Below, piece after piece: positions 18,654-59,758 of a stretch of DNA of 64,000 nt (position 1 is its first letter; every line of letters begins with the position of its first letter). A program made the translations under genes and the position numbers. The stretch comes from an uncultured Bacilli bacterium (lineage in GTDB: Bacteria; Bacillota_I; Bacilli_A; RF39; UBA660), in the NCBI GenBank assembly GCA_934101425.1, contig CAKOQQ010000008.1:3088-67087 (forward strand), in the 5' to 3' direction. The notes below the pieces were generated by a model. It worked only from the letters and a program-made list of their open reading frames with translations, searched no databases and was not told the DNA's origin.

Positions 18654-19001
18654 TTAATTTTTAGGTTTAAAAATAAGTGCAAAGATAAATGAAAATACTA
18701 TAGCAGAAGTTATACCAGATGCAGTTAAATTAAACATACCCATACATAGCCCAATAAGACCATATTTGTTCATACTTAAGGCTCCATGAATTAGTAAATG
18801 TCCAAAACTAGTAATAGGTACAAGTGCCCCACCACCTACATATAGTACAATCTTATCATAGATATTAAAGATATCTAAGAAGGATCCTAATACTACAAAA
18901 ATAGTAGTAATATGTCCAGGAGTTAATTTAGTATTATCAAGGATTAATTGCGCTATTAAACAAATAAAACCCGTAAATAAAAAGGAATATACATATGTCA
19001 C
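18654..19001 (-). CDS. spoVAEB: stage V sporulation protein AE (SpoVAEB type)
   Basis: 115-aa polytopic membrane protein, last gene of a spoVAC-AD-AE triplet. Confidence 0.8.
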   Translation of the reverse strand: MTYVYSFLFTGFICLIAQLILDNTKLTPGHITTIFVVLGSFLDIFNIYDKIVLYVGGGALVPITSFGHLLIHGALSMNKYGLIGLCMGMFNLTASGITSAIVFSFIFALIFKPKN

Positions 19002-24896: not shown

Positions 24897-24900
24897 AACA

Positions 24901-25344
24901 TCACCATACAAAAACCTTTCTAGTTTTATGTTTAGAAGCAATTAAAGGAACAAATTTACTATCTTCTTTACAGTTAACAATAAGTTGAATATCATAATAA
25001 TCTTTAATATCACCACTTAGTGAAGCTAAAATAGTTTCTCCTAATGATTCTATACTTTCTTTATCAGTACCTTTTTTTACATCAATAGTAAATTTCATAA
25101 GTCTACCTTCTAAAGAATATGTTATATCATTAACTTTTTTTGATTCCTTTACTTTAGATTTAACACTTTCTATATCTTCATTTTTGATTGGATGTTCTTC
25201 TATACCATCTAATCTATCACCATATTTATCTTTTCCTGAATCTGGATATAATAAATTTTTAAGACCTATAAATGCAAAAATAAATAATACTATAAATACT
25301 CCTGCAATTATAAATGTATATTTATGCTTTTTAATAAACTTCAT
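24901..25344 (-). CDS. membrane-anchored hypothetical protein
   Basis: 147 aa, single N-terminal TM, 5 nt upstream of the GGDEF-like gene. Confidence 0.55.
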   Translation of the reverse strand: MKFIKKHKYTFIIAGVFIVLFIFAFIGLKNLLYPDSGKDKYGDRLDGIEEHPIKNEDIESVKSKVKESKKVNDITYSLEGRLMKFTIDVKKGTDKESIESLGETILASLSGDIKDYYDIQLIVNCKEDSKFVPLIASKHKTRKVFVW

Positions 25345-30220: not shown

Positions 30221-31750
30221 TTAATATTGACTAGCAATCATAACAGATATTAACGAATATGAAGTCTTAATGGAAATAGTTTTATTTTCTTTATCAATCT
30301 GATAAATGGGGGTTTCTTCCCATTTTTGTGTTTTCAAATTAAAACTTAAAATTCTAATATCATTTTCATCAAATGTTAATGTTGGAACTGATATATCAAT
30401 ATTATGGACATTTTTTTCATCTTTATCATAACAATCAATACCATAATTTGATATATTAAATACACTAGTAATCGCGTTTGACCCCTCAATAAGTTCTTTT
30501 AAAAATTCTGTCTCAGAAGTGGTTTGCTTAGTTCCAGAGGCAGATAATAAATCAACTAATTTAATTTTTCCATCATTAAATTGTTTAATTTTATTGAACA
30601 CTATTTCTGGTAATTCTTCATATTCACTAAAATCATCAGAAATATAGTGTCCATAAGCACTATCATTAATTACATGTAAACTATTATCTGCACTAGCAGC
30701 ATTATGTACTAATATTTCATTTTCAGTAATTAAGTAGTTATGATTATTTGCTATTGTCAAGTTATATACATTCACTGAATTATCCAAATTAAGAACTTCT
30801 ATATTTTTTATACTAGTTTTTCCGCCAATACTAGCTGATAATACATCTCCCACTTTTAATTCATATGCTCTAACCCATCCTTTATCAAGTACATAATATT
30901 GATGCTTTTCTGTAGAAGTTATTACTTTATTATTTTTTAATGTTATTTTATATAATTTATTATTTTTTGAAATCATAGTATCAATAACTCTATTTAATTC
31001 TTTTTCGTTACTTTCAATATTTATTGTATATACATAATCACCAATTTTAATATCTTCAATATTCTTTAAACCATTTCTTGTTAATACTTTTGTTCCTGCT
31101 ACAAAACACGTTGAAATTTGAAACAATCCTTTTATTACTGCAACATTTCCAAAAACATCTTCACTTTCAATTTTATAAATATTTGATGCTTTATTAGAAG
31201 TCCCTAAATAAGTTTTTTCATTCCCTCTATAAACAAGTATACCATTTACAAAATATCTTATTTCTTTTATTCCACTCGTATCTGAAGTATTTACATCTAT
31301 TTTATAATTACTAGTACTAGTATTAGTAATTACAGCTGATAAAAGTGGTGCATCTTTTTCAGCACTTCTAAGTATACATTCACTTTCATTTGTTTTAGTG
31401 CTTACAATACTTCCATCACTTTTAATTTCAATACAGTAATCATTAACATACATTTTTCCATATGCATTACCATTAGTATCATAACTTAAATAACCTTTAC
31501 TTGCTTTATCTCCCTCATATGTAAGTGTACTACCCGATAAATCTATATTTTTTACTGTTTCTCCTTCCATTATTTTTTGCATATAATATGTTTTTGCAGC
31601 ACTTACTATATTTCTTGCACTTGCTTCTGCCGCACTTTTTTTAGAGTCTTCTATAATGTTTAATACGGCTGGTACCGCTATTAGTGCAATAACTGCTAGT
31701 ATTACTATAACGGCTAATAACTCTATTAGGGTAAATCCTTTCTTTTTCAT
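30221..31750 (-). CDS. type IV pilin-like protein fused to a Hint (intein-like) autoprocessing domain and a 159-aa C-terminal domain (paralog E)
   Basis: MKKKGFTLIELLAVIVILAV prepilin signal (G-1, F+1, E+5). Residues 1-125 are shared with four paralogs. Residues 215-350 run CFVAGTKVLT...TEKH...ILVHN (Cys1, TxxH, terminal HN); next residue is Ala. Confidence 0.85.
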   Translation of the reverse strand: MKKKGFTLIELLAVIVILAVIALIAVPAVLNIIEDSKKSAAEASARNIVSAAKTYYMQKIMEGETVKNIDLSGSTLTYEGDKASKGYLSYDTNGNAYGKMYVNDYCIEIKSDGSIVSTKTNESECILRSAEKDAPLLSAVITNTSTSNYKIDVNTSDTSGIKEIRYFVNGILVYRGNEKTYLGTSNKASNIYKIESEDVFGNVAVIKGLFQISTCFVAGTKVLTRNGLKNIEDIKIGDYVYTINIESNEKELNRVIDTMISKNNKLYKITLKNNKVITSTEKHQYYVLDKGWVRAYELKVGDVLSASIGGKTSIKNIEVLNLDNSVNVYNLTIANNHNYLITENEILVHNAASADNSLHVINDSAYGHYISDDFSEYEELPEIVFNKIKQFNDGKIKLVDLLSASGTKQTTSETEFLKELIEGSNAITSVFNISNYGIDCYDKDEKNVHNIDISVPTLTFDENDIRILSFNLKTQKWEETPIYQIDKENKTISIKTSYSLISVMIASQY

Positions 31751-31772: not shown

Positions 31773-31816
31773 AAAACAAAAAACAAAAATCTAGGTTTTC
31801 CTAGTTTTTATGTTTT
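31773..31816 (-). promoter_or_regulatory. terminator-like hairpin plus U-rich tail in the 5' leader of pilin E
   Basis: AAAACATAAAAACTAGG-AAAA-CCTAGATTTTTGTTTT then TTGTTTTC. Lies between the promoter and the pilin RBS (AGGAGG). Confidence 0.5.
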
Positions 31817-31888
31817 ACATATATGACTAATAATTAAGTTATTTGATATGACTATTTCTCTACAAACATAGACATAATTACTAGACAT
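31808..31888 (-). CDS. candidate leader peptide (26 aa) upstream of pilin E
   Basis: ATG preceded by GTGAGG. Peptide MSSNYVYVCREIVISNNLIISHICKT. Stop TAA (31810-31808) lies in the 5' arm of the hairpin. Confidence 0.3.
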   Translation of the reverse strand: MSSNYVYVCREIVISNNLIISHICKT

Positions 31889-31911
31889 ATACCTCACTTT
31901 CTTACTATACA

Positions 31912-31940
31912 AGTATATATTCTTTTTGTTAAGTTGTAAA
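31912..31940 (-). promoter_or_regulatory. sigma-A-type promoter for pilin E leader
   Basis: TTTACA-17 nt-TATACT on the minus strand. Confidence 0.5.
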
Positions 31941-35595: not shown

Positions 35596-36966
35596 TTAAA
35601 ATTCACAATTTTTAGGTGTTCTAGGATAAGGAATAACATCACGAATATTTTCTACTCCAGTTAAGTAAATAAGTAGTCTTTCGAATCCCATACCAAATCC
35701 ACTATGTTTACAACCACCAAATTTTCTTAAGTTAATGTACCAATATAGGTCTTCTTTTGGAACACCCATATCATCCATTCTTTTTACTAAATAGTCATAT
35801 CTTTCTTCTCTTTGACTACCACCCATTAATTCACCTGCACCTGGAACTAATAAGTCTACAGCGGCTACTGTTTTATTATCATCATTCATTCTCATATAGA
35901 ATGCTTTAATATCTTTAGGCCAATCTTTAACAAATACTGGTGCGTTATAAACATCTTTTGTTAAATATTTTTCATGTTCTGTAGCTAAATCTTCTGCATA
36001 ACTTGGAACATTTTCAAATTTTTCTTTTGCTTTTAATAAAATATCTACAGCTTCTTTATGTGTAATTCTAACTGCTTTTGTATTTACTACATGTTTTAAT
36101 TTATCAATAAGTCCATTTTCTACAAATTTATCACAGAATGCGATTTCTTCATAAGCGTGTTCTAAGACATATTTAATAATGTATTTAAGCATATCTTCTT
36201 CGATATCCATAATACCATCTAAATCACAGAAAGCTACTTCTGGTTCAATCATCCAGAATTCACTAGCGTGTGTTTTAGTATTAGAGTTTTCTGCTCTAAA
36301 TGTTGGTCCAAATGTATATGTTTTTTTGAATGCTAGGGCAAATGTTTCTGCTTGTAATTGTCCTGATACAGTAAGGTTTGTAGATTTACCAAAGAAATCA
36401 TCCTTAAAATCTGTTTTATCATCTATTTTATTTAAAGTTGTAACTCTAAACATTTCACCGGCACCTTCACAGTCACTTCCTGTGATAAGTGGTGCATGGA
36501 AATAAACATAGTTATTACTTTGAAAATACATGTGTATTGCTTGTGCTGCAATACTTCTTATTTTAAATACTGCTTGAAATAAGTTTGTTCTAGGTCTTAA
36601 ATATGCTACTTCTCTTAAGAACTCTCTTGTATGTCTTTTTGGTTGAATTGGATAATCTTCAGGACAATCTCCTTCTAGTGTTACTTCTAATACAGATAGT
36701 TCAAATATTTGTTCTTCTTTTGGTGATGAAATAACTTTACCTTTTACAGTAATCGCACTACCAATATGTAATTTGGCTATTTCATCAAATGATTCTAATT
36801 TACTTTCATAAACTAATTGTACACTTTTAAAATAAGTTCCATCGAAGAAATCAATAAATCCCATTTCTTTTTGTTTTCTATGGTTTTTTATCCATCCTTC
36901 TAAAACTACTTCTTTATCTAAATACTCATCTAAATGAGTATATAATTCTCTTAAATCTATTTTCAT
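35596..36966 (-). CDS. asnS: asparaginyl-tRNA synthetase
   Basis: 456 aa class IIb; APLITGSDCEGAGEMF and GFGMGFERL motifs. Start overlaps the gatB stop (ATGA). Terminator at 35571-35597. Confidence 0.9.
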   Translation of the reverse strand: MKIDLRELYTHLDEYLDKEVVLEGWIKNHRKQKEMGFIDFFDGTYFKSVQLVYESKLESFDEIAKLHIGSAITVKGKVISSPKEEQIFELSVLEVTLEGDCPEDYPIQPKRHTREFLREVAYLRPRTNLFQAVFKIRSIAAQAIHMYFQSNNYVYFHAPLITGSDCEGAGEMFRVTTLNKIDDKTDFKDDFFGKSTNLTVSGQLQAETFALAFKKTYTFGPTFRAENSNTKTHASEFWMIEPEVAFCDLDGIMDIEEDMLKYIIKYVLEHAYEEIAFCDKFVENGLIDKLKHVVNTKAVRITHKEAVDILLKAKEKFENVPSYAEDLATEHEKYLTKDVYNAPVFVKDWPKDIKAFYMRMNDDNKTVAAVDLLVPGAGELMGGSQREERYDYLVKRMDDMGVPKEDLYWYINLRKFGGCKHSGFGMGFERLLIYLTGVENIRDVIPYPRTPKNCEF

Positions 36967-38387
36967 TGTTTATCTAGTTCCTCCTTTACAATTTTACCAG
37001 TTAATACTGGATTTGCTTGTCCACTAGTTTTTTTCATTATTTGTCCTACAAAGAAATTATATACATTTCTTCCACTTTTATATTGTTCTACCATTTTTTC
37101 ATTATCTCTGATTACTTCTAGTACCATATTTCTAAGTTCGTCTTCATTCCCCATTTGTTTAATACCTAATTTTTCTACTATTACTTTAGGTTCTTTTTCT
37201 TCTTCCATTACTTTTTTAAATACTTCTTTACCTTGTTTAGATGATATTTTACCAGATTCTACCATATCAATTAAATCAGCTAGCATAGCTGGTGTTAAAT
37301 AAATATCTGTTATTTCTTTTTCTACACTATTTAAATAACCCAAAACAGTATTAGCCACCCAGTTAGATGCTACTTTAGGATTAACTTTTAATTTTATAAC
37401 TTCTTCATAGAAATCAGCTACTTCTATACTTTTAGCAATACTTTTAGCATCTACTAAAGAGACATTATAATTAGTTGTGTAATCTTTAATTCTTTCAAAT
37501 TGTAATCTTGGTAAAGTACTTTTTACTTCATTTATAAGTTCATCTGTAATTTTAAATGGCGGAATATTAGGTTCTGTAAAATACTTATAATCTACTCCAT
37601 CAACTTTTTCTCTCATTCTATATGTCTTCATAGTATTTTCATCATATCTTCTAGTTTCTTGCATTATTTCTTCGCCATTCTTTAAACATTCTTTTTGTCT
37701 TTCTACTTCTACTATGATAGCATCTTTTACATTAGCAAATGATGGAATATTTTTCATTTCTACTCTAGTACCTAATTTATCTGAACCCTTTTCGCTTATA
37801 GATACATTTACATCGCATCTCATTTGACCTAAATCAAGTCTTGCTTCACTAACACTTGTATACAAGAATATTTTTCTTAAGGCATCTAAGAAAGCTAATG
37901 CTTCATCAACACTATGCATACAAGGTTCTGTTACTGTTTCAAGAAGTGGTACACCAGCTCTATTATAATCAATAAGTGAATAATCACTATAATGATCTAA
38001 TGATGCAGTATCTTCTTCTATATGTATATCATGAATATAAATTCTTTTAATCTCATCTTTAACATATATATCAATATATCCATTAGTACCTATTGGTTTC
38101 TTACTTTGAGTAATTTGATATCCTTTAGGTAAATCTGGATAATAATAATTTTTTCTATCAAATACAAGTATATCTGGAATATCACAATTTAGTGCAAGTG
38201 CCATTTTAATTGACTTTTTTAAAGCTTCCATATTTACTGTTGGAAGGATACCAGGGAAAGCTAAATCAACTTGATTAACATTTGTATTAGCTTCACTACT
38301 GTAACCATTTAATCCTTTAGAAAACATTTTTGTTTTACTTTTTACTTCGCAGTGTACTTCAAGTCCTATAGTTACTTCGTATTCCAT
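36963..38387 (-). CDS. gatB: Asp/Glu-tRNA amidotransferase subunit B
   Basis: 474 aa; MEYEVTIGLEVHCEV N-terminus and GatB/YqeY C-terminal domain. Confidence 0.95.
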   Translation of the reverse strand: MEYEVTIGLEVHCEVKSKTKMFSKGLNGYSSEANTNVNQVDLAFPGILPTVNMEALKKSIKMALALNCDIPDILVFDRKNYYYPDLPKGYQITQSKKPIGTNGYIDIYVKDEIKRIYIHDIHIEEDTASLDHYSDYSLIDYNRAGVPLLETVTEPCMHSVDEALAFLDALRKIFLYTSVSEARLDLGQMRCDVNVSISEKGSDKLGTRVEMKNIPSFANVKDAIIVEVERQKECLKNGEEIMQETRRYDENTMKTYRMREKVDGVDYKYFTEPNIPPFKITDELINEVKSTLPRLQFERIKDYTTNYNVSLVDAKSIAKSIEVADFYEEVIKLKVNPKVASNWVANTVLGYLNSVEKEITDIYLTPAMLADLIDMVESGKISSKQGKEVFKKVMEEEKEPKVIVEKLGIKQMGNEDELRNMVLEVIRDNEKMVEQYKSGRNVYNFFVGQIMKKTSGQANPVLTGKIVKEELDKQ

Positions 38388-39781
38388 TATTTTACCTCCT
38401 TAAATTGTCCTTTATAAGACATATTTGATTCTAAGGCATAAGCAATATTAAGAAGCTTTTGATCAAATAAAACACCACTAGTAAGTGATAAACCTATAGG
38501 CATACCCTTAACAAATCCTGATGGAATAGATATACTAGGAAATCCTCCAAAATTACCTATTAACATATGATTTTCAAGTAATAAATATCTATCACTTAAT
38601 TTATCTAAATTTTCACTTTTGAATTTAGGAGCTATACTACTAGATCCCGGTAATATAAGAGCATCATATTCTTTAAATAAACTAGTAAACTTATCAACTA
38701 CTAACCTTCTTATTCTACCAGCATTTAAGAATAATTTTTCTTGATTTTCTTTTTGTAAAATATAACTGCCTAATACAAATCTTCTTTTTATAAGTTCAGA
38801 AAATCCTTTTGTTCTAGCATCAAACATAATATCATTAACATTATTTCCTTCTCCATTTGGCCCAAATATTATACCTGTTAAATTACTATTATTTGAAGTT
38901 GCTTCTGCACATGAAATAGCAAAATAAGTTGGAAATAATGATTCTAATAATCTTTTATCTATACTTACTTCAGATACTGTAGCACCTAAAGATTTACATA
39001 ATTCTATTTTTTCTTTAAAATTATCTAATATCATAGTAAGTTCTTCATCAACATCATCTTTATAATTGTTTATATCTAATAATTCTTTTATATAAAATAA
39101 TTTCATTCCTTTTATATTATTATCTAAGTTATCATGAAAACTAGGTGTTTCGCATCTAAGTGATGTCATATCTTTTTCATCATAACCTTTTATATTATCA
39201 AGTACAAGTGCAGTATCTTCTACACTTCTTGAAAATATACCTACATGATCTAAAGAACAGGCAAATGGAAATAATCCATATCTAGATACTAATCCGTATG
39301 TTGGCTTATATCCTACAATCCCTCCATAAATGGCTGGTTTTCTTACAGAGTCTCCAGTATCACTACCTATAGCAAAAGGAACAATACCTAAAGCTACAGA
39401 AGCAGCTGATCCAGCAGAAGATCCACCTATAAGTCTTTCTTTATCCCATGGATTTCTTACTATACCAGTGTGTCCAGTAGTTCCAGTTCCACCCATTGCA
39501 AGTTCATCTAATACTGTTTTTCCAATACAAACAGCTCCACTTTCTTTTAACTTTGTAACAACTGTTGCATCAAAAAATGGCACATAATCTTTTAATATAT
39601 TAGAAGAAGCAGTTGTAAGTATTCCTTTAGTAGAAAAGTTATCCTTTAAGGCATATGGAATACCTTTTAAAGGGCCATCACATTCATTTTTAGCATCATC
39701 TAATATAGTTACAAATGAATTATATTCATCTTGATACTTATGTGCAAGAGATAATGCAATATCAATATTTTGCTTCATCAT
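38387..39781 (-). CDS. gatA: Asp/Glu-tRNA amidotransferase subunit A
   Basis: Amidase signature GGSSAGSAASVA; K...S-S catalytic layout. Confidence 0.95.
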   Translation of the reverse strand: MMKQNIDIALSLAHKYQDEYNSFVTILDDAKNECDGPLKGIPYALKDNFSTKGILTTASSNILKDYVPFFDATVVTKLKESGAVCIGKTVLDELAMGGTGTTGHTGIVRNPWDKERLIGGSSAGSAASVALGIVPFAIGSDTGDSVRKPAIYGGIVGYKPTYGLVSRYGLFPFACSLDHVGIFSRSVEDTALVLDNIKGYDEKDMTSLRCETPSFHDNLDNNIKGMKLFYIKELLDINNYKDDVDEELTMILDNFKEKIELCKSLGATVSEVSIDKRLLESLFPTYFAISCAEATSNNSNLTGIIFGPNGEGNNVNDIMFDARTKGFSELIKRRFVLGSYILQKENQEKLFLNAGRIRRLVVDKFTSLFKEYDALILPGSSSIAPKFKSENLDKLSDRYLLLENHMLIGNFGGFPSISIPSGFVKGMPIGLSLTSGVLFDQKLLNIAYALESNMSYKGQFKEVK

Positions 39782-39782
39782 A

Positions 39783-40073
39783 TTATTCCACCACCTTTGG
39801 TACTTTTACTCTATTATCTAATTTATTGTGGCAATTACTAAGTAGAATATCTCTATCTATATTTTCTACTTCTTCACCACTTCTTAACTCTATATCATCT
39901 CTTAAGAAAGGAAATGTCATAGGTTCGACTCCTTTAATTTCTTCTATTTCACCTATTTTATCCATTTGTTTTAAGATAACATCAAATTCTTTTAATAATG
40001 TTTCATATTCACTATCTTCCATATCAAACATTAATTTATTTGCATATACTTTTAATTTTTCTTTAGTTATCAT
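39783..40073 (-). CDS. gatC: Asp/Glu-tRNA amidotransferase subunit C
   Basis: Start moved to MITKEKLKVYANK (ATG 40073, AGGAGG upstream). About 96 aa, directly upstream of gatA. Confidence 0.85.
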   Translation of the reverse strand: MITKEKLKVYANKLMFDMEDSEYETLLKEFDVILKQMDKIGEIEEIKGVEPMTFPFLRDDIELRSGEEVENIDRDILLSNCHNKLDNRVKVPKVVE

Positions 40074-40083
40074 AATTCCTCCT

Positions 40084-40124
40084 ATAAAACAAAATAAGTT
40101 TCTACAAAATAGTAGAAACTTATT
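40084..40124 (-). terminator. 13-bp perfect hairpin with U-rich tail between tRNA-Asn and the gatC RBS
   Basis: Minus strand AATAAGTTTCTAC-TATTTT-GTAGAAACTTATT then TTGTTTTAT, ending about 8 nt before AGGAGG of gatC. Confidence 0.6.
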
Positions 40125-40134
40125 AAAAATCATA

Positions 40135-40210
40135 TGGCGCCTGATGTAGGACTCGAACCTACGACCTAACGGTTAACAGCCGTGCGCTCTACCGACTGAG
40201 CTAATCAGGC
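40135..40210 (-). tRNA. tRNA-Asn (GUU), CCA encoded
   Basis: Hand-folded cloverleaf: GCCTGAT acceptor, GCTC/GAGC D-stem, loop CTGTTAA, GTAGG/CCTAC T-stem, G73, CCA; 76 nt. Confidence 0.9.
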
Positions 40211-40213
40211 ATA

Positions 40214-40289
40214 TGGCGCTCAATGTAGGACTCGAACCTACGACCTAACGGTTAACAGCCGTGCGCTCTACCGACTGAGCTAATTGAGC
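40214..40289 (-). tRNA. tRNA-Asn (GUU), CCA encoded, second copy with different acceptor stem
   Basis: Identical to copy 1 from position 8 to 65. Acceptor is GCTCAAT/ATTGAGC instead of GCCTGAT/ATCAGGC. Confidence 0.9.
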
Positions 40290-40290
40290 A

Positions 40291-40541
40291 AATATAAAAC
40301 AGCACTCTCCACTAAAAGGGACGAATTACTGTTGTATCCGCGGTACCACCCAATTTATTATATTAAATATAATCACTTTTATGATATGTAATGTGGTAAC
40401 GGATTACAACCGAACTACTCTACTTAATTCGAATAGCTAGCTCCTTAGTGTTATTCATAATATACTTTATTGTTAGCTTCCACCATGCCTAACTCGCTTT
40501 AATTAGTACTTATTACTACTTCTCTATATCTTCGCCTTATG
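40291..40541 (-). promoter_or_regulatory. T-box leader, Asn specifier (AAC, overlapping AAU)
   Basis: T-box motif AAATTGGGTGGTACCGCGG (40356-40338). Antiterminator GGG[TGGTACC]GCG...CGTCCC. Competing terminator ACAGTAATTCGTCC/GGAGAGTGCTGT plus TTTTATATTT. Stem-I elements AGTA, GGTGGAAG. Specifier region ATGAATAACACT. Confidence 0.8.
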
Positions 40542-43996: not shown

Positions 43997-44865
43997 TATA
44001 CATTCCTTTGATTAACACATGTTTTTTTGCTCATAACATATTCTTTTGCATCTACTACTACTACACTTCCACAGTATTCACATTTAGCCCCTGTTACTAC
44101 ATCTACCTTAGCTCCACAGTTTGGACAAATAGTTTCTTCGCTAGTATTTTCTTTTTTAACAAATGTAATTTCATATTCGATACTTATTTTTTTTGAACTA
44201 GAACCACGTACTACTTTATCATTTTCATCTACTACATAATCATACATTTCAACATTTAAGTATATAGAAACATTTAACATACCATTTACATTTTCAGCTT
44301 TATATACTTTTACACCTTTTAATTCAAAGTCTTTCATTATATTTTTTTGTTTCTTCATTCTTAAAACATCTAATTGCATTTTATATGAATTATATATTTC
44401 ATCAGTAGTTAATTTTCTTAAAGTATCATAATCAAAATTCATCCATGCAATTTGAATATCTTTATATTTTTCAAATACTAATGCTTTAAATTCTTCTAAA
44501 GACATACCAAGAATTTTATCATCTTCTATTTCTTTATATAATGCTTCTCTACTACTTCTTGTAGATGCTTTATATCCCGTATTATCTTTTGTAAAATATA
44601 TAAATAATACTACACATATTATTACAAGTAAAAATGTAAAACTAGAGCCACTATATGATCCAGATGAACTTCTGCTACTACCAGACCAAGAAGATCCTCC
44701 ACTATCCCATGAAGACGAGCCCCCTCCGCTAGACCAAGAGCCTCCTCCTCCATCATAAGAACTATCCCATCCACTATCTGCTTTTACATTTGGTATTACA
44801 AATGTAATTGCAACTAGTGAAAAAATAGATATAATTGTAATAAATATTTTCTTCTTATTATTCAC
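43996..44865 (-). CDS. membrane protein: signal/TM, Gly-Ser-Trp-rich region, TM, Tim44-like domain, zinc ribbon
   Basis: 289 aa. DSGWDSSYDGGGGSWSSGGGSSSWDSGGSSWSGSS low-complexity tract. CPNCG...CEYCG. Confidence 0.6.
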   Translation of the reverse strand: MNNKKKIFITIISIFSLVAITFVIPNVKADSGWDSSYDGGGGSWSSGGGSSSWDSGGSSWSGSSRSSSGSYSGSSFTFLLVIICVVLFIYFTKDNTGYKASTRSSREALYKEIEDDKILGMSLEEFKALVFEKYKDIQIAWMNFDYDTLRKLTTDEIYNSYKMQLDVLRMKKQKNIMKDFELKGVKVYKAENVNGMLNVSIYLNVEMYDYVVDENDKVVRGSSSKKISIEYEITFVKKENTSEETICPNCGAKVDVVTGAKCEYCGSVVVVDAKEYVMSKKTCVNQRNV

Positions 44866-44896
44866 GCTACCACCTATTATAATAATAACACAAACT

Positions 44897-44942
44897 ATTA
44901 CATTTTTCTACAAAAAAAATGCTATAAGCATTTTAATTTGTA
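44897..44942. repeat. 46-bp direct repeat, copy 1 (contains a terminator hairpin)
   Basis: ATTACATTTTTCTACAAAAAAAATGCTATAAGCATTTTAATTTGTA, identical to 48648-48693. Minus strand AAAATGCT-TAT-AGCATTTT plus a T-run. Confidence 0.9.
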
Positions 44943-44981
44943 TAGTATACAATTATGTAAAAAGACTTTAGCATTTTCTTT

Positions 44982-46046
44982 CTATTGTGAAATATTAGAT
45001 TTTAAGACAGTTACAACTGGGCGCACACCGAAGCCTCCTATATGAGACACGCTGAAGTAGTACAATCTGCCACCTTGACTCACGAACCAAGCGCTGGAAG
45101 AAAAGCCGGAATGTGCAGTATTTGTCCAGTATCCATAAGTACTAGAATCTGCTACATTACATCCGAATCTTGTACAATCCTTTATATTATCAAATAGCCA
45201 TGCATATCTATTTGTTCCAGCATCTCCAGTGTATTGTGTTCCTAATGTGTTATTATGGAAGTAATACGCTTGATTATCCCAATTTGGATATCCTGTTATT
45301 GTTGCTATTTCTCTTGCTTCTATTAGTCTAGCATTTATACTTTTGTTCCAACTAGATGTATCACTTTTTAGTTGTTTTAATAATGTAATTGGTCCTTTAC
45401 TGTTATTTCCATGAAGATCATATTCTGCTTCTGTTCCACCTGATTCAATATAATCTTCTTCCGATATCCATGCAACTAATGCCGTTGTATTATGGTCTAG
45501 TAGTAGGTTTACTGTATCATTTCCTTCGTCATTAAAGATATACCATCTCATACATCCTGTTTTAGTCCCTGTAGTGCTTACTGCTTCACTACCACTACAT
45601 TTCTTATTTGTTTCTGGATTATAGTATACTACTGTTCCATTTGCGTATGTAGTTACTTGTGGAATGTCTATAGTGCATTCACTTTCATTTGTTTTAGTGC
45701 TTGTTATGGTTCCATTAGATGATACTTCAATGCAGTATCCTGATATATACATTTTACCACTTACATTACCGTTAGTATCATAACTAAGTAACCCTTTTTT
45801 TGCTTGTTCTCCATCATATTTTAATGTGTTAGTGCTTAAATCAATATTAGAATTTGTTTTATTATCCATTATATTTTTCATGTAATGTGTTTTTGCAGCA
45901 CCTACAATACTTCTTGCACTTGCTTCTGCTGCACTTTTTTTAGAATCTTCTATAATATTTAATACTGCTGGTGTTGCTATTACTGCAATAACTGCTAGTA
46001 TTACTATTACAGCGAGTAACTCTATTAGTGTAAATCCTTTTTTCAT
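44982..46046 (-). CDS. bimodular type IV pilin-like protein (paralog A)
   Basis: Start moved to MKKGFTLIELL (ATG 46046, GGAGG upstream). Pilin module plus a Cys-containing C-terminal module ending GVRPVVTV. Confidence 0.85.
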   Translation of the reverse strand: MKKGFTLIELLAVIVILAVIAVIATPAVLNIIEDSKKSAAEASARSIVGAAKTHYMKNIMDNKTNSNIDLSTNTLKYDGEQAKKGLLSYDTNGNVSGKMYISGYCIEVSSNGTITSTKTNESECTIDIPQVTTYANGTVVYYNPETNKKCSGSEAVSTTGTKTGCMRWYIFNDEGNDTVNLLLDHNTTALVAWISEEDYIESGGTEAEYDLHGNNSKGPITLLKQLKSDTSSWNKSINARLIEAREIATITGYPNWDNQAYYFHNNTLGTQYTGDAGTNRYAWLFDNIKDCTRFGCNVADSSTYGYWTNTAHSGFSSSAWFVSQGGRLYYFSVSHIGGFGVRPVVTVLKSNISQ

Positions 46047-46070
46047 ATATTCCTCCTCATATAAGGTATT

Positions 46071-46115
46071 AAAAAAAATCACAAAACTCTAGGAAATTCC
46101 TAGTTCTTGTGATTT
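46071..46115 (-). promoter_or_regulatory. intrinsic-terminator-like hairpin in the leader of pilin A
   Basis: Minus strand AAATCACAAGAACTAGG-AATTT-CCTAGAGTTTTGTGATTT followed by a T-run (T8 in total), about 25 nt upstream of the pilin ATG. Confidence 0.6.
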
Positions 46116-46195
46116 ATATACATGACTAATAGGTGGTTATTAAATATTAACCCCCCCCCACAAATATAAGAAGTATTATAATTTGTATTAGCCAT
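46100..46195 (-). CDS. candidate leader peptide (31 aa) containing the G9 tract
   Basis: AAGGAAGTGA RBS-like, then ATG. Peptide MANTNYNTSYICGGGLIFNNHLLVMYINHKN. Stop TAG (46102-46100) is inside the hairpin 5' arm. Confidence 0.35.
   Translation of the reverse strand: MANTNYNTSYICGGGLIFNNHLLVMYINHKN
46151..46159. repeat. C9/G9 homopolymer tract
   Basis: Nine consecutive C on the plus strand in a very AT-rich context. Encodes GGG GGG GGG of the leader ORF. Confidence 0.9.
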
Positions 46196-46218
46196 ATATT
46201 CACTTCCTTACTATATTT

Positions 46219-46247
46219 ATTATATCTTCTGATTTCGGTAATGTCAA
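46219..46247 (-). promoter_or_regulatory. consensus sigma-A promoter of pilin A leader
   Basis: TTGACA-17 nt-TATAAT. Confidence 0.7.
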
Positions 46248-46276
46248 TATTTTATAATTTTATTTATGGACATCTA

Positions 46277-47284
46277 TCAAGACATCAATAAAGCTTTATC
46301 TACAGTAATAACTGGGCGAATACCGTAATTGTCTGTATCCAAGTAGTATCTGAAAAAGAAGCCATAGTTGTTCACGATTCCATTGAGGTAAAAATTTCCG
46401 GAATATACATTGCCTGTCCAGTATCCCTCGTTACTAGAATCTGCTACATTACATCCAAATCTTGTACAATCTTTCGTGTTATCAAATAGCCATGCATATT
46501 TATTAGTTCCTGCTGCTCCTTCATAAGGCGTATTTGAATTTGTATGGAAATAATATGCATCGCTTCCTGCTGTATTTCCTGTTATTCTGACGATTTCGCT
46601 TTCTTCTATTAGTCTTGGGTTTATACTTTTATTCCAAGAGCTTGTATCACTTTCTAGTTGTGCTTTTACTTCAACTGAGTCATTAGTATTTGTACCACTT
46701 GATGCCAATGCAACAAATGCTGTCGTATTATGATCTAGTAGTAGATTAACTATATCATTTCCTTTATCATTAAATGCATACCACCTCATACATCCTGTTT
46801 TAGTTCCAGTAGTGCTTACTGCTTCAGCACTTGTACATTTACTGTTTGTTTCTGGATTATAGTATACTACTGTTCCATTTGCGTATGTTGTTACTTGTAG
46901 AACGTCTATATCACATTCACTTTCATTTGTTTTAGTGCTTGTAATAGTTCCATCAGATGATACTTCTACACAATAACCACTTATATACATTTTTCCATAT
47001 GCAGTACCATTAGTATCATAACTAAGTAATCCTTTTTTAGCTTGTTCTCCATCATATTTTAATGTGTTAGTGCTTAAATCAACATTAGAATTTGGTTTAT
47101 TATCCATTAGATTTTCCATGTAATGGCTTTCTGCAGTTCTTACTATATTTCTTGCACTTGCTTCTGCTGCACTTTTTTTAGAGTCTTCAATAACATTTAA
47201 TACTGCAGGGGTTGCTATTAGCGCTATTACTGCTAGTATTACTATTACTGCTAAGAGCTCTATTAATGTAAATCCTTTTTTCAT
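46277..47284 (-). CDS. bimodular type IV pilin-like protein (paralog B)
   Basis: MKKGFTLIELLAVIVILAVIALIA. Same module order; shorter middle region. AAGGAGG RBS. Confidence 0.85.
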   Translation of the reverse strand: MKKGFTLIELLAVIVILAVIALIATPAVLNVIEDSKKSAAEASARNIVRTAESHYMENLMDNKPNSNVDLSTNTLKYDGEQAKKGLLSYDTNGTAYGKMYISGYCVEVSSDGTITSTKTNESECDIDVLQVTTYANGTVVYYNPETNSKCTSAEAVSTTGTKTGCMRWYAFNDKGNDIVNLLLDHNTTAFVALASSGTNTNDSVEVKAQLESDTSSWNKSINPRLIEESEIVRITGNTAGSDAYYFHTNSNTPYEGAAGTNKYAWLFDNTKDCTRFGCNVADSSNEGYWTGNVYSGNFYLNGIVNNYGFFFRYYLDTDNYGIRPVITVDKALLMS

Positions 47285-47304
47285 TTTTCCTCCTTACTAT
47301 ATTT

Positions 47305-47333
47305 AGTATATCTTCCGATTTCGGTAATGCCAA
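47305..47333 (-). promoter_or_regulatory. promoter of pilin B (same promoter family, no leader module)
   Basis: TTGGCA-17 nt-TATACT, then AAATATAGTAAGGAGGAAAAATG. Spacer is near-identical to the A/C promoters. Confidence 0.6.
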
Positions 47334-47348
47334 TATTTTATAATTTTA

Positions 47349-48428
47349 TTATTGGGCTTCTAACTGATCTTTCAATAAAGCTTTATCTACAGTGATAACT
47401 GGGCGAACACCAAAGGTGTCTATTTCGGCTAAAACTCCTGATCCCATACCCCCTCCGGCGCTTACTCCCCATGCTCTATAAGAATTGTTGGAATATACAG
47501 TGCCTGTCCAGTATCCATCGTTACTAGAATCTGCTACATTACATCCAAATGTTGTACAATATTTCGTGTTATCAAATAACCATGCATATTTATTTGTTCC
47601 TGCCGCTCCTTGATAAACTATTTGTGTGTTATCATGGAAATAATAATAATCTATACCTGCTGTCCATGTTGTGTTATTAGTTATTTTAGCTATTTCACTT
47701 GCTTCTATTAATCTAGCATTTATAGTTTTATTCCATGTGCTCGTATCACTTTTTAGTTGTTTTAATAATGTAATTGGCCCTTTACTATTATTTCCATAGT
47801 CTCCCCATTCTGCTTCTGTTCCACCTGCTGCAATATAATCTTCTTTTGATATCCAATCTACAGCTGCTGTTGTATTATGATCTAGTATTAAATTAACTTT
47901 AGATGATCCTTCATCATTAAATATATACCACTTCATACATCCTGTTTTTGTTCCTGTCACGCTTACTGTTTCCATTTTATGGCATGGCATGTTTATTTCA
48001 GGATTATAGATTACTACTCTTCCATTAGCATATCTTTTTTGTGGCTTTTCTATAATGCATTCATTTTCATCTGTTTTATCACTTGTAATAGTACCATTAT
48101 TTAGTATTTCTACACAATAACCACTTATATGCATTTTTCCATATGCTATTCCGTCTTCATTATAGTATAAATATCCTTTACTTGGTTTTTTTCCACTATA
48201 AGATAGTATATCACTAGATAAATCAATACCTGTTATTTCTTCATCTTTGTCTAGATTACTTGTATAATATTTTTCTGCTATGTTTTTTATCATTCTAGCA
48301 TCATTTTCTGCACTTTTCTTTTTTGCATTATTTACTGTTTTCTTTACTGCTGGTACTGCTATTAGTAGTATTACTGCTAGTATTACTATTACTGCGAGTA
48401 ACTCTATTAGGGTAAATCCTTTTTTCAT
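47349..48428 (-). CDS. bimodular type IV pilin-like protein (paralog C)
   Basis: MKKGFTLIELLAVIVILAVILLIA. Pilin module more diverged; C-terminal module conserved (GVRPVITV). Confidence 0.85.
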   Translation of the reverse strand: MKKGFTLIELLAVIVILAVILLIAVPAVKKTVNNAKKKSAENDARMIKNIAEKYYTSNLDKDEEITGIDLSSDILSYSGKKPSKGYLYYNEDGIAYGKMHISGYCVEILNNGTITSDKTDENECIIEKPQKRYANGRVVIYNPEINMPCHKMETVSVTGTKTGCMKWYIFNDEGSSKVNLILDHNTTAAVDWISKEDYIAAGGTEAEWGDYGNNSKGPITLLKQLKSDTSTWNKTINARLIEASEIAKITNNTTWTAGIDYYYFHDNTQIVYQGAAGTNKYAWLFDNTKYCTTFGCNVADSSNDGYWTGTVYSNNSYRAWGVSAGGGMGSGVLAEIDTFGVRPVITVDKALLKDQLEAQ

Positions 48429-48452
48429 ATATTCCTCCTCATATAAGGTATT

Positions 48453-48496
48453 AAAAAAATCACAAAACTCTAGGAAATTCCTAGTTCTTGTGATTT
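48453..48496 (-). promoter_or_regulatory. intrinsic-terminator-like hairpin in the leader of pilin C
   Basis: Same sequence as 46071-46115 except the T-run is 7 rather than 8. Confidence 0.6.
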
Positions 48497-48576
48497 ATAT
48501 ACATGACTAATAGGTGGTTATTAAATATTAACCCCCCCCCACAAATATAAGAAGTATTATATTTTGTATTAGCCAT
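48481..48576 (-). CDS. candidate leader peptide (31 aa) containing the G9 tract
   Basis: Same as 46100-46195 with one substitution (N5K). Stop TAG is inside the hairpin. Confidence 0.35.
   Translation of the reverse strand: MANTKYNTSYICGGGLIFNNHLLVMYINHKN
48532..48540. repeat. C9/G9 homopolymer tract
   Basis: Nine consecutive C on the plus strand. Confidence 0.9.
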
Positions 48577-48599
48577 ATATTCACTTCCTTACTATATTT

Positions 48600-48628
48600 A
48601 TTATATCTTCCGATTTCGGTAATGTCAA
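48600..48628 (-). promoter_or_regulatory. consensus sigma-A promoter of pilin C leader
   Basis: TTGACA-17 nt-TATAAT. Confidence 0.7.
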
Positions 48629-48647
48629 TATTTTGTCCTATTCTAAA

Positions 48648-48693
48648 ATTACATTTTTCTACAAAAAAAATGCTATAAGCATTTTAATTTGTA
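48648..48693. repeat. 46-bp direct repeat, copy 2 (3' end of the GDPD gene plus its terminator)
   Basis: Identical to 44897-44942. Includes the last 7 codons (YKLKCL-stop region) of the 48673-49290 gene. Confidence 0.9.
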
Positions 48694-49290
48694 AGGAATA
48701 TCCGTTATTATATTAATTTCTTTATTTAATAACTTTATATTCTTATATATTTCTATATCATTTATAGTCCATATATAATCTATATATTTATATTTATTTA
48801 GATAAGTATATTTTACTGAATTAAAATCTAAATTATTTCTAAAGCGGAATTTATTTTTATTAGTACCTATAAGTAATCCACATTTATAATTATAATTTTT
48901 ATGTATATATTTTATTAGTCTATAATTAAAACTACATAAAGCGATATTTAAATGACTATATTTTTTTAATATCATATCTAAATATGTAATAAATTCTTTA
49001 TCTTTTTTTTCACTTTTTACTTCTATTAGTATAAGTTTTATAGTATCTAATCTTTTTAATAAATCATCTAATCTATCTAATTTTAATTCATTATAATTAG
49101 TATTATTAACTTCTAAGTTATTATATATATAATCATGATTTAATACTATTTCTTTATCTTTAGTAAACATTATATCTACTTCTACACCATCAACATAATC
49201 TCTATTTAAAGAAAATACTACCGCTTCGATAGTATTTTCTTTATAGTTATGATTATCATTACCTCTATGAGATATAATCATCATATCCAA
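48673..49290 (-). CDS. glycerophosphodiester phosphodiesterase family protein
   Basis: IISHRGN...ENT...VEVDI...HD motifs of GDPD. Overlaps mraY by 10 nt. Confidence 0.75.
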   Translation of the reverse strand: MDMMIISHRGNDNHNYKENTIEAVVFSLNRDYVDGVEVDIMFTKDKEIVLNHDYIYNNLEVNNTNYNELKLDRLDDLLKRLDTIKLILIEVKSEKKDKEFITYLDMILKKYSHLNIALCSFNYRLIKYIHKNYNYKCGLLIGTNKNKFRFRNNLDFNSVKYTYLNKYKYIDYIWTINDIEIYKNIKLLNKEINIITDIPYKLKCL

Positions 49291-50273
49291 ACCCCAAAGG
49301 CAATTGCGGCCATACTAAGTATTAAACCAACTACCCAGAAACCCTTTACAATATCAGATTCTTCATAGCCTTTCTTTTCAAAATGATGATGTAGTGGTGC
49401 CATTAAAAATACTTTTTTATGGAAACACATTATACCAAGCATTTGAATTATACAAGATAGTGTTTCTATTATAAATACTCCTGCTACTATTACTAATGTT
49501 AATTCATGATTAGTTATAATAGCTATTGAAGCAAGTGTTGCACCAAGAGAAAGTGAACCAGTGTCTCCCATAAATACACGAGCTGGATGACTATTAAATA
49601 ATAAGAAACCAAGTAATGATCCTATAAGGATAAAACAGAATATTGCTATATCAGAGTATCCTACTACCCATGTTGCATTCCAAGTAATAAGTCCAAATGC
49701 TAAGAAACTAATTACTGATAACCCTCCTGCAAGTCCATCTAACCCATCTGTTATATTTACAGCATTTGAAGATGCAACTAATATAAATAATAAGAATATA
49801 CCATAGAACCATTTCATATTAATATTTATACCTAATGTATAAATATTAAGTACTGGCTCATTACCACTTCTCATAAATATATAGAAGAATATTAAAGCTA
49901 TAAATAATTGTGCAAATAACTTTTGCAATTCTGTTAATCCTATATTATTTTTTCTTTTTATTATTAAATAATCATCAAGAAAACCGATTAAAGCGTATCC
50001 TACAAAGACAAATAACACTATAAATAAGTTTTCTGAAAATGATATTTTCTTAAGTAAAAGCAACCATATAACAGTTATAAGTGTAGGTATTATAAATATA
50101 AGTCCTCCCATAGTAGGAGTTCCTTCTTTACTACTATGAGTGCCTCTTAAAAAGATACTTTCACTTTGTTTTATATTTATCTTTTTTAAAAAAGGTACAA
50201 ATACTAAACCAAATATAACACTAGTAATGAACCCTATCATCATTGCTAACATGGCCTTAGCTAATATTAACAT
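49281..50273 (-). CDS. mraY: phospho-N-acetylmuramoyl-pentapeptide transferase
   Basis: 330 aa, about 10 TM; KEGTPTMGG, NAVNITDGLDGLA, MGDTGSL, APLHHHFE motifs. Confidence 0.95.
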   Translation of the reverse strand: MLILAKAMLAMMIGFITSVIFGLVFVPFLKKINIKQSESIFLRGTHSSKEGTPTMGGLIFIIPTLITVIWLLLLKKISFSENLFIVLFVFVGYALIGFLDDYLIIKRKNNIGLTELQKLFAQLFIALIFFYIFMRSGNEPVLNIYTLGININMKWFYGIFLLFILVASSNAVNITDGLDGLAGGLSVISFLAFGLITWNATWVVGYSDIAIFCFILIGSLLGFLLFNSHPARVFMGDTGSLSLGATLASIAIITNHELTLVIVAGVFIIETLSCIIQMLGIMCFHKKVFLMAPLHHHFEKKGYEESDIVKGFWVVGLILSMAAIAFGVWI

Positions 50274-57895: not shown

Positions 57896-58437
57896 CTATT
57901 TTTCTTTTAATGGCGCAAGTATCATAGTCATAAATCTTCCTTCTAATTTAGGATTTTGTTCTATGACAGCGATATTTTCTAGAGTTTTTGCAAATCTAAG
58001 TAATACTTCTTTTCCTAATTCTGGGTGAGCCATTTCTCTTCCCTTAAATCTTATACTAACTTTAATCTTATGTCCTTTTTCTAAATATTTAGTAGAGTTT
58101 TTAACTCTAGTATTAAAGTCATGAATATCAATTGAAACTGATAATCTATATTCTTTAACTTCTAAAGTATTTTCTCTTTGTCTTTTTTGATTTTCTTTTT
58201 GTCTTTTCTTAGTTTCATATTTGTATTTATTGTAATCCATAATTTTACATACTTGTGGATTAGCATTTGGACTAATTAAAACTAAATCAAAACCTGCATA
58301 AGTTGCTAAAGTTCTAGCATCTTCAATTCTTTTGATACCTAATTGTTCTCCATTAGGACCTATAACCATTACTTCTTTTGCTCTTATTTGTTCATTTATA
58401 AACAAATCTCTGTCTTTACTAGCGATATCCCACACCT
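57896..58437 (-). CDS. infC: translation initiation factor IF-3 (probable non-AUG start)
   Basis: INEQIRAKEVMVIGPNGEQLG onwards is canonical IF-3. The listed upstream Met extension covers GGAGGTG; an in-frame ATC at 58437 lies 8 nt after it. Unusual AUU-class starts are the rule for infC. Confidence 0.85.
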
Positions 58438-58440
58438 CCA

Positions 58441-58564
58441 AATAAAAAAGTAGATACAAAGTATCCACTTAAAACCATATCAAAAATATTATAATGGCAT
58501 TTTACCCAAAGACTTAATCAATCGGGTGAGAAGTGGATACTTCTTCTTTCCTTTTTCAATCACT
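58441..58564 (-). promoter_or_regulatory. L20-leader-like attenuator upstream of infC
   Basis: Terminator AGTGGATAC-TTT-GTATCTACT+T6 (58455-58481). An upstream segment GAAGTATCCACTTC can pair alternatively with AAGTGGATACT. Position matches the Firmicute infC-rpmI-rplT leader. Confidence 0.5.
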
Positions 58565-58687: not shown

Positions 58688-59758
58688 TTAAGAGATGATA
58701 GATTTTGAGATAGTGATAACTGGGCGAACACCGTAGCTGTCTGCATCATCCACGTTGCCGCGGTTCAATTGGCCATTGCGGACCACGTGCCAAGCGTCGT
58801 GAGAATCGCCGGAATATGCAGTGTTTGTCCAGTATCCCAACAAAGTACTAGAATCTGCTACATTACATCCATATGTTGTACACTTATATGTATTATCAAA
58901 TAACCATGCATATTTGTTTGTTCCTGCTGCTCCACTATAAGGTGAATTTGAATTTATATGGAAAAAATAATAACTTCCTCCTGCTGTCCATCCATTATTT
59001 CCTGTTATAGTAGCTATTTCTCTTGCTTCTATTAGTCTAGCATTTATACTTTTATTCCAACTAGACGTATCACTTTTTAGTTGTTTTAATAATGTAATTG
59101 GTCCTTTACTGTTATTTCCATAACTTCCATATTCCGCTTCTGTTCCTCCAGCAGCAATATAATCTGCTTTTGATACCCATGCAAATGTTGATGTTGTATT
59201 ATGATCTAGTAGTAAATTAACTGTTGATGCTCCTTCATCATTAAAGGTATACCACTTCATACATCCTGTTTTAGTTCCTGTAGTGCTCACTGCTTCAGAG
59301 CTTGTGCATTTAGTATTTGTTACTGGATTATAATATACTACTGTACCATTTGCGTATGTAATTACTTGTGGAGTATCTATAGTGCATTCACTTTCATCTG
59401 TTTTAGTGCTTGTTATAGTTCCATTAGATGATACTTCTACGCAGTAACCACTTATATACATTTTACCACTTACATTACCATTATTATCGTAAGTAAGATT
59501 TCCTTTTTTAGCTTGTTCTCCATCATACTTTAATGTGTTAGTGCTTAAATCAATATTAGAGTTTGGCTTATTATCCATTATATTTTTTATATAATGTGTT
59601 TTTGCTGCACCTACAATACTTCTTGCACTTGCTTCTGCTGCACTTTTTTTAGAGTCTTCTATAATATTTAATACTGCAGGGGTTGCAATTAAAGCAATAA
59701 CTGCTAATATTACTATTACTGCTAATAACTCTATTAATGTAAACCCTTTCTTTTTCAT
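58688..59758 (-). CDS. bimodular type IV pilin-like protein (paralog D)
   Basis: MKKKGFTLIELLAVIVILAVIALIA. Very similar to paralog A over the first ~170 aa. C-terminal module ends YGVRPVITI. Confidence 0.85.
   Translation of the reverse strand: MKKKGFTLIELLAVIVILAVIALIATPAVLNIIEDSKKSAAEASARSIVGAAKTHYIKNIMDNKPNSNIDLSTNTLKYDGEQAKKGNLTYDNNGNVSGKMYISGYCVEVSSNGTITSTKTDESECTIDTPQVITYANGTVVYYNPVTNTKCTSSEAVSTTGTKTGCMKWYTFNDEGASTVNLLLDHNTTSTFAWVSKADYIAAGGTEAEYGSYGNNSKGPITLLKQLKSDTSSWNKSINARLIEAREIATITGNNGWTAGGSYYFFHINSNSPYSGAAGTNKYAWLFDNTYKCTTYGCNVADSSTLLGYWTNTAYSGDSHDAWHVVRNGQLNRGNVDDADSYGVRPVITISKSIIS

Follow-up and report, generated by a model that had tools for sequence, protein, structure and literature searches.

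How does a pilin gene in a very AT-rich genome come to carry an uninterrupted run of nine G residues in its 5' leader, and what could such a run do there? The question is raised by a 64-kb stretch of DNA from an uncultured Bacilli bacterium (RF39; UBA660), taken from assembly GCA_934101425.1 (contig CAKOQQ010000008.1, positions 3,088-67,087 of the forward strand) and referred to below as the window. Two C9 runs on its forward strand, at 46151-46159 and 48532-48540, are G9 on the coding strand, all cassette and pilin features of the window being on the minus strand. They are the only G/C runs of six or more in the window, where G+C content is 20-33%, and runs of eight give 4 overlapping matches against 0.01 expected from shuffled sequences. 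A first-pass annotation had placed each tract within a short open reading frame (ORF) in the leader of a pilin gene, A or C, and had read the arrangement as a phase-variable attenuator. The placement proved correct, and the interpretation finds support in silico. In our view the leader is probably a translation-dependent transcription attenuator that takes slipped-strand frameshifting as its input.

The two leaders belong to cassettes of about 207 nucleotides (nt) that differ by one base and by one T in a T run, and the two leaders are copies of one cassette, their tracts not being independent events. Cassette A starts with a promoter (46219-46247) in which TTGACA and TATAAT, separated by 17 nt, match the consensus at 12 of 12 positions; the same core with the same spacing is found in cassette C (48600-48628). 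The Shine-Dalgarno site of the leader ORF, AAGGAAGTGA (46200-46209 in A, 48590-48581 in C), agrees with the Firmicute consensus AAGGAGGTGA at nine of ten positions and stands 4 nt before the ATG. Leader ORF A (46195-46100; 31 codons and TAG) encodes MANTNYNTSYICGGGLIFNNHLLVMYINHKN, with the tract read as GGG GGG GGG, and leader ORF C (48576-48481; 31 codons) is identical except for N5K. The ORF runs through the 3' strand of a helix, P1, to which we return below, and on into an intrinsic terminator that this strand directly abuts. In cassette A the 3' strand of P1, TATTAGTCATGTATAT, occupies 46116-46131 and the terminator 46071-46115, with its hairpin at 46115-46076 and a T8 run at 46078-46071; the corresponding part of cassette C (48453-48512) comprises the P1 strand at 48512-48497, the hairpin at 48496-48457 and a T7 run at 48459-48453. 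The hairpin is built on an invariant CTAGG/CCTAG core and has a predicted energy of -16.8 kcal/mol (z = -4.9). The pilin's GAGGAGG and ATG follow about 30 nt past the T run, with no room for a separate pilin promoter downstream of the terminator. The U tract of the terminator also varies: cassette C has T7, and cassette A has T8 in the window but T7 in one Hadza assembly (L004, 3834-4003). Its length could modulate terminator strength.

The G9 frame reads on to AAC TAG, the TAG lying within CTAGG in the 5' arm of the hairpin, whereas the G8 frame gives GGT TAA and the G10 frame GTT AAT ATT TAA. A check of the frames confirmed these readings, which the first-pass annotation had given together with the statement that both off-frame stops fall more than 30 nt before the hairpin. 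That distance is right if counted to the inner CTAGG core, which lies 39-46 nt downstream of the stops, and right for the G8 stop if counted to the base of the full stem (31 nt), but the G10 stop is only 24 nt upstream of that base.

We envisage that the cassette works in the following way. The strong constitutive promoter would fire into a leader of about 150 nt carrying a good Shine-Dalgarno site and a short ORF and, because an intrinsic terminator stands about 30 nt before the pilin ribosome-binding site, the pilin would be transcribed by read-through alone. In the long frame (G6, G9 or G12 in leaders of the A/C type), a ribosome moving behind RNA polymerase would melt P1 and halt with its A site on the TAG in the 5' arm, so that the hairpin is blocked and the pilin is transcribed (predicted ON). 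Following a slip of +1 or -1 (G8, G10), the ribosome would come off the leader 24-31 nt short of the stem, P1 and the terminator would fold, and transcription would end (predicted OFF or low). An interrupted tract, GGTGGAGGT, is predicted to be ON in the same way as G6 and G9. Because a slip in the G run shifts the ribosome's stop relative to the terminator, slipped-strand mispairing would make the switching of every pilin locus heritable, reversible and independent of the other loci. The CTAGG/CCTAG core carries TAG stops in two frames, so that ribosomes entering the hairpin would terminate there. After transcription of its 3' strand, P1 would sequester the leader AUG, and we speculate that it may thereby restrict the decision to the first, co-transcriptional ribosome. 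The model takes the leader ORF to be translated and the long frame to be the ON state, and it anticipates that switching occurs within a clone as well.

Does the tract vary as such a model would have it? Searches of public gut-metagenome assemblies for the exact proteins of the window, and for close homologues of these, yielded independent contigs of the same species; we take the sample labels to denote human cohorts, the Hadza among them, and for one paralog a cohort of pigs. The promoter-leader cassette is not limited to two paralogs, as had first been assumed, but is a portable element found at at least four loci of this genome, namely A, C, one adjoining polC and one adjoining spoIIGA/sigE, and in a wider family of leaders. 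The copies are near-identical apart from one G-to-T change in a hairpin (L016), a few changes near a pilin ribosome-binding site (L017) and the T7/T8 difference, and the tract is hypermutable between strains: 22 observations in the species comprise 16 of G9, three of G6, two of G10 and one contig that starts inside the tract. Leader C has G9 in the window and in four samples, G6 in two samples and G10 in one; the polC-side locus has G9 in one sample and G6 in another; the spoIIGA-side locus has G10 in one sample, the contig that begins inside the tract being its second observation; and leader A has G9 in the window and in all nine other samples. The heterogeneity between isolates that the phase-variation proposal called for thus exists, with G6, G9 or G10 in otherwise identical cassettes. 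One sample, ERZ27287367, combines three loci in the long frame with one G10, and locus combinations that differ between samples are what would be expected of independent switching at each locus. The long frame is present in 19 of the 21 complete calls, the frame-preserving G6 included, which points to pilins that are ON for the most part in the gut, or to switching that is not particularly rapid.

Related lineages, which came from scanning JGI metagenomes for a DNA pattern and from searching with a profile of the leader peptides, extend this picture. Allelic loci that are 99.2% identical over 1.9 kb have G9 in one case (L033) and G8 in the others (L048-51), and in a second pair (99.7% identity) the tract, G6TGGAGGG in L032 and G7TGGAGGG in L039, is the only gap. 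G11 is found in L043-47. Interrupted tracts, which would resist slippage, read GGTGGGG in L038 and L040-42 and GAGGGT in L062 (GCA_964325435.1). When the 355 kb of fetched sequence were surveyed for G/C runs of six or more, 38 of the 39 runs fell at this single position of the leader.

It might be objected that the length differences are artefacts of sequencing or assembly, or else neutral polymorphism without effect on pilin expression. All tract lengths are consensus calls from short-read metagenome assemblies, many contigs break in or beside leaders, and the G10 calls are single observations. The lengths are, however, repeated across independent samples and assemblers (G9 in ten for leader A, G8 in four, G11 in five and G6 in three), a difference of 3 nt is not typical of homopolymer error, and tracts interrupted by substituted bases occur, all of which makes simple homopolymer miscalling appear unlikely. 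The confinement of G runs to one position argues for selection. We therefore hold an artefactual or neutral origin to be quite improbable. The assemblies do impose a limit of another kind. Contigs L010, L012, L013, L018 and L055-L061 end inside or beside the leader or in the N-terminal repeats of the pilin; assemblies thus break repeatedly at the cassette, and public data under-represent its tract lengths. Further sampling of leader A through the Tim44-like gene downstream gave no new leaders, the contigs from new samples starting within pilin A and the three contigs that span the cassette having been sampled already. A scan of genome contigs with pilin A returned only two distant loci, in 'uncultured Bacilli' metagenome-assembled genomes (36-38% identity), and no leader was recovered from it.

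What do leaders without a G run look like? The geometry of stop and terminator that the first-pass annotation had deduced from the window is kept in diverged homologues, including those that have no tract. Leader D (31780-31940, minus strand) has a TTTACA/TATACT promoter (31940-31912), a Shine-Dalgarno site AAGAAAGTGA (31903-31894) and a 26-codon ORF (31888-31808) encoding MSSNYVYVCREIVISNNLIISHICKT, the TAA of which lies in the 5' arm of a CTAGG/CCTAG terminator (31816-31780) followed by a pilin gene. In each of 13 representative leaders whose frames were compared, exactly one frame past a conserved Cys codon reaches or closely approaches the terminator, its stop lying no more than 14 nt upstream or 41 nt downstream of where the CTAGG core starts, and the remaining two frames stop at least 32 nt upstream of the core. 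Of composition-matched shuffled sequences, only 4-7% lack a stop between the ATG and the hairpin. As assembled, the tract-less leaders L028, L029, L030, L034 and D (L037) use the long frame. Among the tract-bearing leaders this frame is in use in A, C, L031, L036, L039 and L043-51, and L011, L017, L032 and L033 are in a short frame. One tract-less leader, L035 (2059-2227), is an allele of the tract-bearing L033 (2750-2928): the flanks of the two are 95.7-99.2% identical and their central segments differ (GATGGT...ACCATC in place of G9...). Near-identical flanks around a different centre would imply recombination or gene conversion between leader cassettes at this locus.

Is it a peptide, an RNA or the act of translation that is preserved in these leaders? 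Gene callers report the ORF as a protein of 29-46 residues in many assemblies (for example P0123), in one case in 58 contigs, and the N-terminal motif M-x-N-x-x-Y-N-T-S-H/Y-I-C recurs, as would be expected of an ORF that truly encodes a small protein and has a terminator of its own, or of a small RNA, with the pilin merely lying downstream. A conserved small protein was nevertheless rejected: most substitutions in the 12 N-terminal codons that the leaders share change the amino acid, and the C-terminal half is read in different frames between lineages. The element, moreover, always lies directly 5' of a pilin gene, about 30 nt from its ribosome-binding site and with no promoter between, and in pilin paralog B exactly the leader is missing, as described below. 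We find such a gene extremely hard to reconcile with these data. It would appear that translation of the leader matters and the sequence of its peptide does not.

Codon phase in the conserved block TTAGTCATRTAT differs between leaders of the A type and of the L029 type, and the block is therefore conserved as RNA. It complements the start-codon region ATATATGRCTAA, with which it is predicted to form the 12-13 bp helix P1 that buries the leader AUG and abuts the terminator; in cassette A the 5' strand of P1, which holds the AUG, lies at 46186-46199, and 99% of its cells are paired in the 21 leaders compared for conservation and pairing. P1 and the terminator together are 98.3% paired over these leaders, against 31-56% in slid controls. 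The changes within them are wobble-compatible and one-sided, only one pair having changed on both sides. In the same 21 leaders the Shine-Dalgarno site and ATG are nearly invariant. The conserved set thus consists of the Shine-Dalgarno site, the AUG, an open frame into the terminator, P1 and the terminator.

These findings bring into play a structured cis-regulatory RNA (a riboswitch, a thermometer or a protein-binding element made up of P1, inner hairpins and the terminator) in which the ORF would be incidental and the G run would form one strand of an inner helix (GGGGGUUA with UAACCACC), its length polymorphism being neutral or tuning the RNA. The pairing of P1 and the terminator, the retention of the P1 3' strand whatever its codon phase, the replacement of GGGGGU...ACCACC of the A type by GAUGGU...ACCAUC in L035 and an overall fold score of the leader of z = -3.9 all speak for it. 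Against it, no Rfam family matched positions 44000-50000 even at E values up to 10, and none reached its gathering score at the leaders in a search of the whole window. Conservation within the leader is lowest, and length varies, in the stretch that separates the Cys codon from P1, which is unlike an aptamer, and double-sided change is confined to the single pair mentioned above. Predicted folding is the same from G6 to G12, with pairing probabilities unchanged at 0.97 for the terminator and 1.00 for P1, which favours an effect on reading frame over one on RNA structure. A structured RNA would also fail to account for why the Shine-Dalgarno site and AUG are invariant, why a single frame is open into the terminator and why tract alleles cluster in frame. 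We consider it unlikely, and modelling indicates that tract length should act through the reading frame of the attenuator and not through RNA structure. Cyclic di-GMP (c-di-GMP) riboswitch classes control pilins in Clostridioides difficile; the lack of an Rfam match at the leaders led us to reject a known riboswitch, these classes included. Also set aside was a pairing, suggested by alifold, of the leader's Shine-Dalgarno region with CCUUAU after the terminator, for which a one-pair covariation was compatible with chance (about 0.2).

Is there a precedent for such a device? The first-pass annotation had supposed that phase variation had not been described in combination with a leader peptide and a terminator. 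This was mistaken, since the combination is known from the pil1 and pil3 loci of Streptococcus gallolyticus, where gain or loss of GCAGA repeats in a 38-residue leader ORF moves the stop codon (Danne et al. 2014, PLoS Pathog, PMC3894217). Where the stop precedes a premature terminator (-18.7 kcal/mol, 6 T) by 28-39 nt the state is Pil1-low, and where it lies within or after the terminator the state is Pil1-high, as was proven with terminator-deletion, ATG* and 3-STOP mutants (PMC3894217). In both systems a promoter is followed by a Shine-Dalgarno site and a short, repeat-bearing leader ORF, an intrinsic terminator of comparable make (-16.8 kcal/mol and 7-8 T here) and pilus genes; the frame sets the stop about 28 nt or more (24-31 nt here) upstream of the hairpin or else within or after it; repeat number varies between isolates; and a genome has the device at more than one of its pilus loci. 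Judged by sequence, the present element appears to have every feature that marks a pil1-type attenuator: an ORF with its ribosome-binding site, a variable repeat, a terminator with no other promoter before the pilin, and the characteristic stop positions. There are also differences. The repeat is a G homopolymer of 6-11 nt here and 13-22 GCAGA units there, the leaders share no sequence homology, and the cargo consists of type IV (prepilin-type) modular pilins and not of sortase pili. The long frame predominates here, whereas the S. gallolyticus strain UCN34 is mostly in the short frame. A start-codon-sequestering P1 helix, an invariant CTAGG/CCTAG core with TAG in two frames, a portable cassette of about 210 nt at four or more loci, and repeat-less relatives are all additional to what is seen in S. 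gallolyticus. There the switch was proven by mutants; the one proposed here is deduced from sequence.

It is conceivable that the short frames are the expressing ones, or that slippage of polymerase or ribosome on G9 sets a fixed fraction of read-through with no switch at the level of DNA. The polarity proposed here was derived from sequence and not from measured expression, and transcriptional slippage can arise on long homopolymers. Inspection of the predicted folds, however, revealed no convincing antiterminator pairing that a ribosome in the short frame would favour: for the AUUUGUG(G) segment against the 5' arm of the terminator, we found only 5-7 weak pairs, which were not consistently conserved. 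Tract-less relatives are in the long frame, as expected if the long frame is the expressed one, the long frame means high expression in S. gallolyticus, and length alleles do exist in the DNA. A reversed or non-heritable arrangement is, on this evidence, very improbable.

Several observations nonetheless weigh against a switch of the kind we propose. All 10 samples of leader A have G9, the most frequent variant, G6, leaves the frame unchanged, and out-of-frame tracts make up only 2 of the 21 complete calls in the species; this could reflect slow switching, or strong selection for the long frame in the gut. Homopolymers are error-prone in short-read metagenome consensus, from which every length derives. 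L035 has no tract and yet is in a short frame, the sole exception of its kind. Transcription and translation are only weakly coupled in at least Bacillus subtilis. Finally, the model does not account for the retention of the terminator in tract-less leaders, for which reason a second, physiological input is possible.

How does the cassette relate to other regulators that act on pili or on terminators? In Bifidobacterium breve UCC2003, slippage in an intragenic G tract switches pilus production ON and OFF (Penno et al. 2022, PMC9187656). Both cases concern poly-G in a pilus system of a gut commensal, and tract length is plastic within populations of B. breve, but the B. breve tract lies inside a structural pilus gene and truncates its protein, whereas the tract described here lies in an upstream ORF, is predicted to act on termination and leaves the pilin coding sequence intact. 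In the E. coli trp and pyrBI leaders, the position of the ribosome on a leader ORF decides whether an intrinsic terminator forms. The same is predicted here; unlike those leaders, the present ones revealed no run of regulatory codons and no clear antiterminator, and the input would be a DNA frameshift in place of charged tRNA or nucleotide supply. The cwpV gene of C. difficile likewise couples phase variation of a surface protein to an intrinsic terminator in the 5' leader, which forms or not depending on site-specific DNA inversion; it uses no leader ORF or ribosome. Other phase switches built from a leader ORF and a terminator did not turn up in the literature searched, and the papers citing Danne et al. 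2014 discuss S. gallolyticus only. With this logic previously shown in a single species, and here apparently built independently from a homopolymer, the device suggests itself as a general solution rather than a curiosity. It would let a commensal vary its surface adhesins, and possibly a pilin-borne toxin, locus by locus with the coding sequence untouched. The hosts are uncultured, very AT-rich, spore-forming Bacillota of human and other gut metagenomes, and the cassette defines an unannotated leader element behind the short 'proteins' that gene callers report.

How might the cassette have come about? Taking the observations jointly, we tentatively entertain, as a possibility well short of an even chance, that the leader is an older, self-standing attenuator that senses translation and onto which poly-G tracts were grafted. 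In this scenario the AUG-sequestering P1 would let only the first co-transcriptional ribosome decide, and the hairpin core would stop ribosomes in two frames. Poly-G would have arisen repeatedly (from AGTGGGGA to G8-G11) and would have been locked again by interruption. The portable cassette of about 210 nt, with its consensus promoter, would spread by recombination among pilin loci, including that of a pilin-toxin fusion, and the tract-less leaders would respond to some physiological signal. Were this scenario true, an uncultured spore-forming gut lineage would possess a combinatorial set of independently switching surface proteins.

What, then, are the proteins under this control? Five modular type IV pilin paralogs are encoded in the window, all beginning MKK(K)GFTLIELLAVIVILAV and carrying the type IV pilin N-terminal motif K/R-G|F-T-L-x-E with a hydrophobic alpha1 helix (MKKGFTLIELLAVIVILAV). 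TIGR02532 scores 33 bits (cutoff 16) and PF07963 28.5 (cutoff 21.2), both models exceeding their cutoffs, and more than 2,700 homologues of these modular pilins are found in gut metagenomes. Pilin A (44982-46046, minus strand, 354 residues) consists of a class III signal peptide and pilin module, of which residues 5-126 match S. sanguinis PilE1 (PDB 8pfb; E = 2.6e-8), and a C-terminal module of about 230 residues with a weak DUF6273 match and no confident structural relative. Its AlphaFold2 model has a pLDDT of 78.6, and the best PDB fold match of the C-terminal module, to the T. ramosa IgA peptidase, is weak (E = 1.5e-3, TM 0.30). Pilin C (47349-48428, minus strand) has 359 residues. Pilin E (58688-59758, minus strand, 356 residues) is 78% identical to A and has its own, unrelated upstream region with no leader. 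A scan of roughly 30 ORFs of the window brought up none of the assembly genes PilB/PilC/PilD or Com.

Pilin paralog B (46277-47284, minus strand) lies between A and C and has a promoter of the same type as theirs (TTGGCA, 17 nt, TATACT; 47333-47305) without leader, ORF or terminator. Relative to its neighbours it is a clean deletion of exactly the leader, such that the position of the leader Shine-Dalgarno site directly serves the pilin ATG, and it would represent a natural unswitched control. Paralog D (30221-31750, minus strand, 509 residues), downstream of the tract-less leader D, joins a pilin N-terminus to a pretoxin-HINT domain and an unassigned C-terminal domain of about 150 residues, an architecture of the polymorphic-toxin type on a type IV pilin carrier. 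Genes combining N_methyl, Flg_new and PT-HINT are present at related loci as well (L038-L041, about 2800-3117).

The three-pilin array is flanked by a 53-nt direct repeat (94% identical; 44897-44949 and 48648-48700) that includes the terminator after the GDPD gene, which suggests that the array was inserted or expanded through duplication at this GDPD-side terminator. In sample ERZ27287367 pilins C and B and leader A are missing before pilin A, their place being taken by an insertion sequence element (an rve transposase and a helix-turn-helix protein) and a different upstream region that lacks a leader (L005/L054, about 780-2210), and the same sample also holds an intact array (L009); the two versions would indicate structural heterogeneity at the pilin locus. 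Elsewhere, changes in downstream pilin genes comprise a nonsense single-nucleotide polymorphism (L043, about 1949, TGGA to TTGA) and an in-frame deletion of 159 nt within a repeat module (L039, about 2353-2511), and the idea of further homopolymer switches in these genes was dropped on account of these being the changes.

The remainder of the window is informative about the host. YqfD (654-1811) and SpoVAD (18998-19987) are sporulation genes, SpoIIGA/sigE and YunB are present on related contigs, and the host would on these grounds appear to be a spore-forming member of the Bacillota, with about 26% G+C. A GGDEF protein of 690 residues is encoded at 22869-24941, and an L20 leader (58436-58554, minus strand) stands upstream of infC-rpmI-rplT. 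The region 35596-40541 (minus strand) opens with a T-box leader (40314-40541; 128 bits), after which come two tRNA-Asn(GUU) genes (40214-40289 and 40135-40210), gatC, gatA, gatB and a gene resembling that for asparaginyl-tRNA synthetase (AsnRS); the arrangement looks like a T-box-controlled operon for tRNA-dependent asparagine synthesis that includes its tRNA genes.

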